From assembly GCF_003991155.1 (NCBI RefSeq), contig NZ_CP031293.1: DNA of 64,000 nucleotides, one strand, 5' to 3'. How positions within the stretch are numbered: position 1 is the stretch's first letter; each line of letters starts with the position of its first letter. The notes under the pieces are model-generated. The model was not told where the DNA came from. It worked only from the letters and a program-made list of their open reading frames with translations, and did not search any database. Of the stretch, positions 37,726 to 39,413 are shown one piece after another. Made by a program: the position numbers and the translations under genes. The DNA is from Escherichia coli (GTDB taxonomy: Bacteria > Pseudomonadota > Gammaproteobacteria > Enterobacterales > Enterobacteriaceae).

Positions 37726-38145
37726 ATGTTGTTTATCAAGCCTGCGGATCTCCGCGAAATTGTGACTTTTCCGCTATTTAGCGATCTTGTTCAGTGTGGC
37801 TTTCCTTCACCGGCCGCAGATTACGTTGAACAGCGCATCGATCTGAATCAACTGTTGATCCAGCATCCCAGCGCGACTTACTTCGTCAAAGCAAGTGGTG
37901 ATTCTATGATTGATGGTGGAATTAGTGACGGTGATTTACTGATTGTCGATAGCGCTATTACCGCCAGCCATGGTGATATTGTCATCGCTGCTGTTGACGG
38001 CGAGTTTACGGTGAAAAAATTGCAACTACGCCCGACGGTACAGCTTATTCCCATGAACAGCGCGTACTCGCCCATTACCATCAGTAGTGAAGATACGCTG
38101 GATGTCTTTGGTGTGGTGATCCACGTCGTTAAGGCGATGCGCTGA
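37726..38145 (+). CDS. umuD: translesion polymerase V subunit UmuD
   Basis: 139-aa ORF recognised as UmuD. Confidence 0.95.
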
Positions 38146-39413
38146 TGTTTGCCCTCTGTGATGTAAACGCGTTTTATGCCAGCTGTGAGACGGTGTTTCG
38201 CCCTGATTTATGGGGTAAACCAGTGGTTGTGCTATCGAATAATGACGGTTGCGTTATCGCCCGAAACGCTGAGGCAAAGGCGCTGGGTGTTAAAATGGGC
38301 GATCCCTGGTTCAAACAAAAAGATCTGTTTCGTCGCTGTGGCGTGGTTTGCTTTAGCAGCAATTATGAGCTTTACGCAGACATGAGCAATCGGGTGATGT
38401 AGACGCTGGAAGAACTATCGCCCCGCGTCGAGATTTACAGTATTGATGAGGCATTCTGCGATCTGACCGGTGTGCGTAATTGTCGCGATCTGACTGATTT
38501 TGGCAGAGAAATTCGCGCAACGGTGCTACAACGTACCCATCTTACTGTTGGTGTGGGGATCGCCCAGACCAAAACGCTGGCTAAGCTTGCCAATCATGCG
38601 GCAAAAAAATGGCAGCGGCAGACGGGTGGGGTGGTGGATTTATCAAATCTGGAACGCCAGCGTAAATTAATGTCTGCTCTCCCCGTGGATGAAGTCTGGG
38701 GGATTGGACGGCGGATCAGCAAAAAACTGGATGCGATGGGGATCAAAACCGTTCTCGATTTGGCGGATACAGATATCCGGTTTATCCGTAAACATTTTAA
38801 TGTCGTGCTCGAAAGAACGGTGCGTGAACTGCGCGGCGAACCCTGTTTGCAACTGGAAGAGTTTGCACCGACGAAGCAGGAAATTATCTGTTCCCGTTCG
38901 TTTGGTGAACGCATCACGGATTATACGTCGATGCGGCAGGCCATTTGTAGTTACGCTGCCCGGGCGGCGGAAAAACTTCGCAGCGAGCATCAATATTGTC
39001 GGTTTATCTCCACGTTTATGAAGACGTCACCATTTGCGCTCAATGAACCTTATTACGGCAATAGCGCGTCGGTAAAACTGCTGACGCCCACTCAGGACAG
39101 CAGGGATATCATTAACGCCGCTACGCGATCTCTGGATGCCATCTGGCAAGCGGGCCATCGTTATCAAAAAGCGGGCGTGATGCTGGGGGATTTCTTCAGT
39201 CAGGGAGTCGCGCAGCTCAATTTATTCGATGACAACGCACCGCGCCCCGGGAGTGAGCAATTGATGGCGGTAATGGATACGCTAAATGCTAAAGAGGGCA
39301 GAGGAACACTCTATTTTGCCGGGCAGGGGATCCAGCAACAATGGCAGATGAAGCGTGCCATGCTTTCACCACGTTATACAACGCGAAGTTCTGATTTACT
39401 GCGGGTCAAATAA
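38145..39413 (+). pseudogene. umuC: umuC interrupted by an in-frame amber codon at 38400..38402 (codon 86)
   Basis: ORF track shows 38145..38402 (85 aa) then the same frame resuming as a 313-aa ORF; together they are collinear with UmuC except ...NRVM-TAG-TLEEL. Confidence 0.85.

Follow-up and report, generated by a model that had tools for sequence, protein, structure and literature searches.

The umuDC locus of the window

The window, that is the whole stretch of 64,000 nucleotides of Escherichia coli DNA analysed here, contains umuD and umuC arranged as an operon, with a LexA box ahead of the two genes and with the stop codon of umuD and the ATG of umuC overlapping by 1 nt at position 38145. 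The features considered below are the following.

37687..37706, + strand: LexA (SOS) box of the umuDC promoter, intact, TACTGTATATAAAAACAGTA, identical to K-12 MG1655
37726..38145, + strand: umuD, intact, 139 aa, with 139/139 aa identical to K-12 UmuD
38145..39413, + strand: umuC frame, 422 codons with one nonsense codon, otherwise full length and gap-free relative to K-12
38145..38402, + strand: N-terminal ORF, 85 aa, with the steric gate F10/Y11 present and D101/E102 absent
38400..38402, + strand: amber codon TAG at codon 86, C>A at 38401, ancestral codon TCG (Ser)
38472..39413, + strand: residual ORF, 313 aa, with a GTG start at codon 110; the entire N-terminal palm and finger part, including D101/E102, is absent

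The original prediction had described umuD and the LexA box as intact, and both are indeed identical to their K-12 counterparts; the UmuD product gave 163 bits against the NCBIfam model NF007621 (cut-off 110). Since umuC is the final gene of the operon and the convergent dsbB gene lies on the opposite strand, no polar effect of a lesion in umuC is expected.

Looking at umuC itself, the gene was aligned with that of K-12 MG1655. Both are 1269 nt long and align without a gap, so the frame is collinear with the K-12 protein, as had been proposed. Of the codons affected by the 18 nucleotide differences, 13 are changed synonymously and 5 non-synonymously (S86*, D183E, P261T, I292M and T375A). The first of these is the amber codon that had been announced: positions 38391-38408, read in the frame set by the ATG at 38145, are GGG GTG ATG TAG ACG CTG, which places TAG at codon 86 (38400-38402), and the list of open reading frames contains the expected pair of 85 aa (38145..38402) and 313 aa (38472..39413). 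When the assembly was compared with the reference umuC at 38400..38402, the window read TAG and K-12 read TCG (Ser), the very sense codon that had been guessed; TCG is also found in the nearest relatives, including the closest one, 2016C-3878. The underlying change is a C>A at 38401, a G:C>T:A transversion. With TCG in both aligned references, K-12 and 2016C-3878, the TAG codon is derived and private to the window. As a chance event such a change is unremarkable, because 41 of the 1170 possible single-base substitutions in umuC codons 1-130 (about 3.5%) create a stop.

Predicted consequence for UmuC and Pol V

When Ser was restored at codon 86, the umuC product scored 892.5 bits against NCBIfam NF002955 (cut-off 431) and aligned over positions 1-422 of 422. 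As the sequence stands, TAG at codon 86 interrupts the full-length frame; the 85-aa fragment covers positions 1-85 of the model and the 313-aa ORF positions 111-422. The active site of UmuC includes D101 and E102, and F10 and Y11 are its steric-gate residues (PMC4374754); the single substitution D101N (umuC104) is enough to make UmuC catalytically dead (PMC5342242). The first in-frame ATG, GTG or TTG past the stop is codon 110, and the codons for D101 and E102 sit between the stop and this first possible restart. Although all these residues are encoded, the steric gate and the catalytic carboxylates are thus not carried by a single polypeptide: the stop at codon 86 parts F10/Y11 from D101/E102, and because codon 110 is the earliest restart, restart products would be devoid of D101/E102 as well. 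Neither of the two ORF products, of 85 aa and 313 aa, is predicted to work as a polymerase. The loss of Pol V deduced in the original prediction is sound on sequence grounds, since the stop precedes D101/E102 and D101N alone inactivates the enzyme.

We propose that a spontaneous and recent C>A change at 38401 turned Ser86 (TCG) into an amber codon in a natural ST457-like lineage. The operon would still be SOS-induced and UmuD/UmuD' would still be made, while translation of umuC would stop after 85 residues to give a fragment that would also lack the little-finger and C-terminal regions. Because this fragment and any re-initiation product lack D101/E102, no UmuD'2C (Pol V) would be formed from this locus, and the allele would be a simple null. 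Chromosomal translesion synthesis by Pol V would be lost, together with most of the SOS base-substitution mutagenesis induced by UV or chemicals, and UV survival would be slightly reduced. Such a phenotype of a umuC null, in which SOS mutagenesis is mostly lost and UV sensitivity is mild, belongs to the established knowledge of Pol V, as does the view that Pol V is dispensable. By descent the locus is a umuC gene and, as written, a pseudogene or null allele. All in all, the window very probably shows a dispensable gene that was recently and spontaneously inactivated in a natural E. coli of ST457-like type.

Strain background and clone-mates

The umuDC region was compared by megablast with 5,426 complete E. 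coli genomes. None of them matched it perfectly, and the best matches were one base off. Likewise, none of the 5,063 complete E. coli genomes with a match to the 61-mer centred on the TAG contained it exactly, the best identity being 98.4%. Between 2016C-3878 and the window there was a single difference in 7,861 bp, an A in the window against a C at 38401, and the same position was the only one to differ from FDAARGOS_1268 over positions 1-52225. CUVET19-1704, isolated from a dog in Thailand, could be compared over all 64,000 bases and showed three changes only: the TAG position 38401, a SNP at 18836 and a 2-bp indel. The SNP at 18836 is private to CUVET19-1704, as FDAARGOS_1268 agrees with the window there. 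The TAG is therefore the sole private difference of the 64-kb window with respect to its clone-mates.

Two local observations were made in the course of these alignments. In cobB (around position 610) the window has 2 bp (TC) that are absent from CUVET19-1704; the gene is annotated as frameshifted in CUVET19-1704, and the window carries the intact form. Further on, 29 SNPs relative to FDAARGOS_1268 are clustered at 52226-56937, a segment that spans emtA, ycgR, ymgE, a TonB-dependent receptor gene, modD and a methyltransferase gene. The other clone-mates match the window perfectly over this segment, and because of this, and because the rest of the sequence is identical save for 38401, the cluster looks like a recombination tract in FDAARGOS_1268.

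The relatives were obtained from humans, dogs, cattle, poultry, pigs and wastewater, and published work takes the chromosome of CREC-544, a close relative, as the reference for ST457 (PMC9860340). These matches point to a wild, globally distributed ST457-like lineage as the background of the window, and not to a K-12 or B laboratory strain. The original prediction had left two origins side by side, a laboratory-derived allele and a natural loss of SOS mutagenesis. With a umuC gene 18 nt away from that of K-12 and 64 kb that resemble field isolates, the natural loss is favoured and the laboratory allele is disfavoured.

Recurrence of the codon-86 amber and nonsense controls

We then looked for the exact 85-aa product in a large assembly collection comprising 153 billion gene positions. 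Many contigs were retrieved, most of which corresponded to genes cut by the end of the contig. A genuine TAG at the same base was present in two other lineages, GCA_030201655.1 (a 217-kb contig, hereafter L007) and SRR5990590 (L009); a second long contig with the 85-aa product proved to come from a sister assembly of GCA_030201655.1. These assemblies share with the window the same C>A base and the same pair of 85-aa and 313-aa ORFs, but their umuC haplotypes and genomic backgrounds differ from it. Identity to the window is no more than about 97-98% for L007 and L009, and L007 has lost hlyE. The SNPs that set their umuC haplotypes apart from that of the window lie, on the upstream side of 38401, at a distance of 14 bp in L007 and 59 bp in L009, and 67 bp away on the downstream side. 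Because these flanking SNPs exclude shared descent, or all but a tiny recombination patch, the TAGs of L007 and L009 are best read as independent mutations, neither inherited from a common ancestor with the window nor the source of its allele. The occurrence of the same TAG in GCA_030201655.1 and SRR5990590 also means that the S86 amber allele is viable in nature.

To read these numbers, other prefixes of UmuC were counted in the same way. Products of 83 and 84 aa are impossible by one-step nonsense mutation and can only arise from contig ends; they were found on 65 and 78 contigs, respectively, compared with 63 contigs for the 85-aa product. Among the contigs read for the two control changes of the same class, S92 TCG>TAG and E75 GAG>TAG, there were only contig-end truncations. 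The third control, E90 GAA>TAA (equivalent to 38412-38414), gave true stops on at least two haplotypes (L038 and L039), and the corresponding 89-aa product was present on 420 contigs, one of them a 4.94-Mb chromosome (BEC99668.1). This is probably a clade-level umuC pseudogene, fixed in a clade. E90>TAA resembles the S86 amber in arising by a G:C>T:A change, in creating a stop (four codons further downstream) behind which the 313-aa ORF remains, and in occurring on two haplotypes or more; it is, however, much commoner, whereas the codon-86 allele is private or near-private. The 313-aa ORF is indeed called by gene callers in other assemblies with a stop at codon 86 or 90. In a collection this large, a few sightings of a given nonsense change are not remarkable, and codon 86 is not outstanding. 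The proposal of a mutational hotspot at 38401 was unsupported, as codon 86 does not rise above the baseline of truncations and the E90 nonsense change also recurs.

Two SRA-derived contigs of other haplotypes (L008 and L012) end at 38400, one base before 38401, and such ends might mark a branch of the assembly graph at 38401 in those samples. Given a prefix census without excess, this is probably a coincidence.

Loss of umuDC in wild E. coli

The umuDC operon as a whole was examined with a 1,861-bp query (37600-39460). Of 5,422 complete genomes, 56 (about 1%) had no contiguous match of 80%. For neighbouring segments of the same size, this was the case for 0 of 5,422 genomes (dsbB-nhaB, 39460-41320) and for 2 of 5,421 (dadA-dadX, 44532-46392). 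Structural loss is thus comparatively frequent for umuDC, against 0-0.04% for these neighbours.

Other lesions of the operon were encountered within the clone itself. An exact look-up of the 313-aa ORF in the haplotype of the window retrieved only one clone-mate, GCA_014327205.1, where the ORF is accompanied by an IS1 junction: the first 111 nt of the contig (L017) are identical to the end of IS1A and are joined to umuC at 38413 (about codon 90), and beyond the junction the contig is 100% identical to the window over 38413-49413 (11 kb). This junction, 12 bp away from the amber site, represents an independent disruption of umuC by IS1. In CREC-544 (NZ_CP024826.1), the ISL3-family element ISKox3 is inserted at the equivalent of 37693-37700, inside the LexA box, with an 8-bp duplication; it parts the operator/promoter from umuD and leaves the umuC coding sequence intact. 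An insertion within umuC had been considered for CREC-544 and was rejected, since in this region ISKox3 lies ahead of umuD, within the LexA box. The two IS lesions thus affect the same operon in the same clone as the S86 amber, but they result from transposition and not from a point mutation, and both are likely to result in Pol V being lost or mis-regulated. Two metagenome or SRA contigs of the L007-type haplotype (L050:1-60 and L051:1-25) have unrelated sequence joined to umuC near 38428 (about codon 95), which is another insertion or rearrangement in umuC.

Taken together, these data fit a sporadic loss of umuDC by wild E. coli, consistent with its known dispensability. The amber codon of the window is one case of such sporadic and mostly short-lived inactivation, and neither a designed nor a regulated feature.

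Alternative explanations

The first issue is whether the amber codon exists in the strain and, if so, whether it arose in a laboratory. If the true base at 38401 were a C and the TAG an error of sequencing or assembly, umuC would be intact. The TAG is a single-base difference from otherwise identical relatives and is shared by none of the matching complete genomes, both of which would suit an error. Yet the window has no other private SNP and no private indel in 64 kb with respect to three clone-mates, which argues for a very accurate consensus, where a wrong substitution is expected less often than a genuine private SNP; over the same 64 kb, CUVET19-1704 carries a private SNP and an indel of its own, so that true private SNPs are found in the clone at about this density. 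Moreover, the context GATGT[C/A]GACG is neither a homopolymer nor a Dam or Dcm site, and the identical change in independent assemblies on other haplotypes shows that it is biologically tolerated. An error is thus unlikely, and from these comparisons we put the odds several-fold in favour of a real mutation. The amber codon being taken as real, it could still be a umuC mutant isolated or engineered in a laboratory. Non-mutable umuC mutants are classic laboratory products, and a private single nonsense SNP is what mutagenesis followed by screening is expected to yield. The background, however, is not K-12 (umuC differs by 18 nt) and is near-identical to ST457-like field isolates, and the locus shows no vector, scar or marker sequence. 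The only described point allele that was compared, umuC104, is D101N and differs from the present one, and no codon-86 amber is mentioned in the literature that was searched on natural umuC polymorphism, on pseudogenes or on the named alleles umuC36, umuC25, umuC104 and umuC122. The window does not show what marks a classical laboratory umuC allele, namely a K-12 or B background together with a described lesion, and a laboratory origin is accordingly very improbable.

A second issue is what a real, natural amber codon entails. SOS mutagenesis could be kept despite the stop through an amber-suppressor tRNA, leaky read-through of UAG-A, or a Pol V homologue carried by a plasmid or ICE, such as mucAB, impAB, rumAB or a second umuDC. 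The 64-kb window contains no tRNA gene according to ARAGORN; megablast found umuDC-like DNA on E. coli plasmids at 14 plasmid places, and relatives of the clone are multidrug-resistant plasmid carriers. Against this, suppressor alleles are characteristic of K-12 laboratory lines and seldom found in wild isolates; with basal read-through of UAG at about 1% or below and a protein as scarce as UmuC, read-through would yield less than one UmuC molecule per cell; and a plasmid-borne homologue would mask the phenotype without restoring this locus. We therefore regard retained SOS mutagenesis as improbable. A programmed read-through or recoding was rejected because the stop is not conserved among relatives, the TAG-centred 61-mer being found in 0 of the 5,063 matching complete genomes. 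The recent spontaneous null that we favour could, on the other hand, be more than an ordinary event if 38401 were a mutational hotspot, or if loss of umuDC were positively selected in this lineage, the loss of SOS mutagenesis being then adaptive and not the result of drift. The same C>A change does occur on three haplotypes, near-identical clone-mates carry three different umuDC lesions, and umuDC is disrupted far more often than its two neighbours (56 genomes vs 0 and 2). But with 153 billion gene positions any nonsense change may appear a few times, the 85-aa product (63 contigs) is not above the 83-aa (65) and 84-aa (78) products, and E90 GAA>TAA, likewise present on two or more haplotypes, is much commoner. 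A selected loss would not prefer one particular base, all the numbers are very small, and attention was drawn to codon 86 solely by the stop in the window itself, which is an ascertainment effect. A hotspot or selection is thus doubtful in this lineage, and there is similarly only a small chance that Pol V loss is recurrently favoured, or 38401 unusually mutable, in successful MDR lineages such as ST457. If it were so, a favoured loss of Pol V would amount to selection against SOS mutagenesis, an antimutator trend, and not to drift.

Comparison with known umuC alleles and use of the strain

Besides umuC104, the laboratory alleles umuC122::Tn5 and umuDC deletion-cat are known. These laboratory nulls abolish Pol V activity, and the S86 amber is predicted to do the same and to give the same phenotype, that is, a UV non-mutable and slightly UV-sensitive strain. 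As in the window, the umuDC promoter is unaffected in umuC104 and umuC122::Tn5, and umuC104 also leaves umuD untouched. The present allele differs from them in its lesion, a stop in place of Ser86 that precedes the active-site carboxylates, and in its wild ST457-like chromosome.

If the base call is real, the isolate is a natural umuC null, in which UV or other damage should induce little SOS base-substitution mutagenesis unless a plasmid supplies a Pol V homologue. This matters to those who would use the strain in mutagenesis or resistance-evolution experiments, and in the annotation umuC should here be marked as a pseudogene. The understanding of Pol V is unchanged by this amber codon: this is ordinary pseudogenisation of a well-known type, in which a dispensable SOS gene has acquired a private nonsense mutation. 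Its interest for population genetics is modest and lies in umuDC being hit fairly often by nonsense codons and IS elements in wild E. coli.

Other features of the window

The hlyE gene (36443-37354, minus strand), a neighbour of umuDC, is intact in the window, where it encodes 303 aa as in the relatives. It is deleted in L007 and fragmented in the contigs L010, L015, L019 and L024-L028; hlyE is likewise often decayed in wild E. coli. At a greater distance, around 29246-30715, a gene for an IS3-family transposase adjoins a truncated autotransporter beta-barrel pseudogene, as identified by homology to the annotation of CUVET19-1704, and an intact autotransporter adhesin gene of the ECIAI39_1904 family lies just upstream of this pair.
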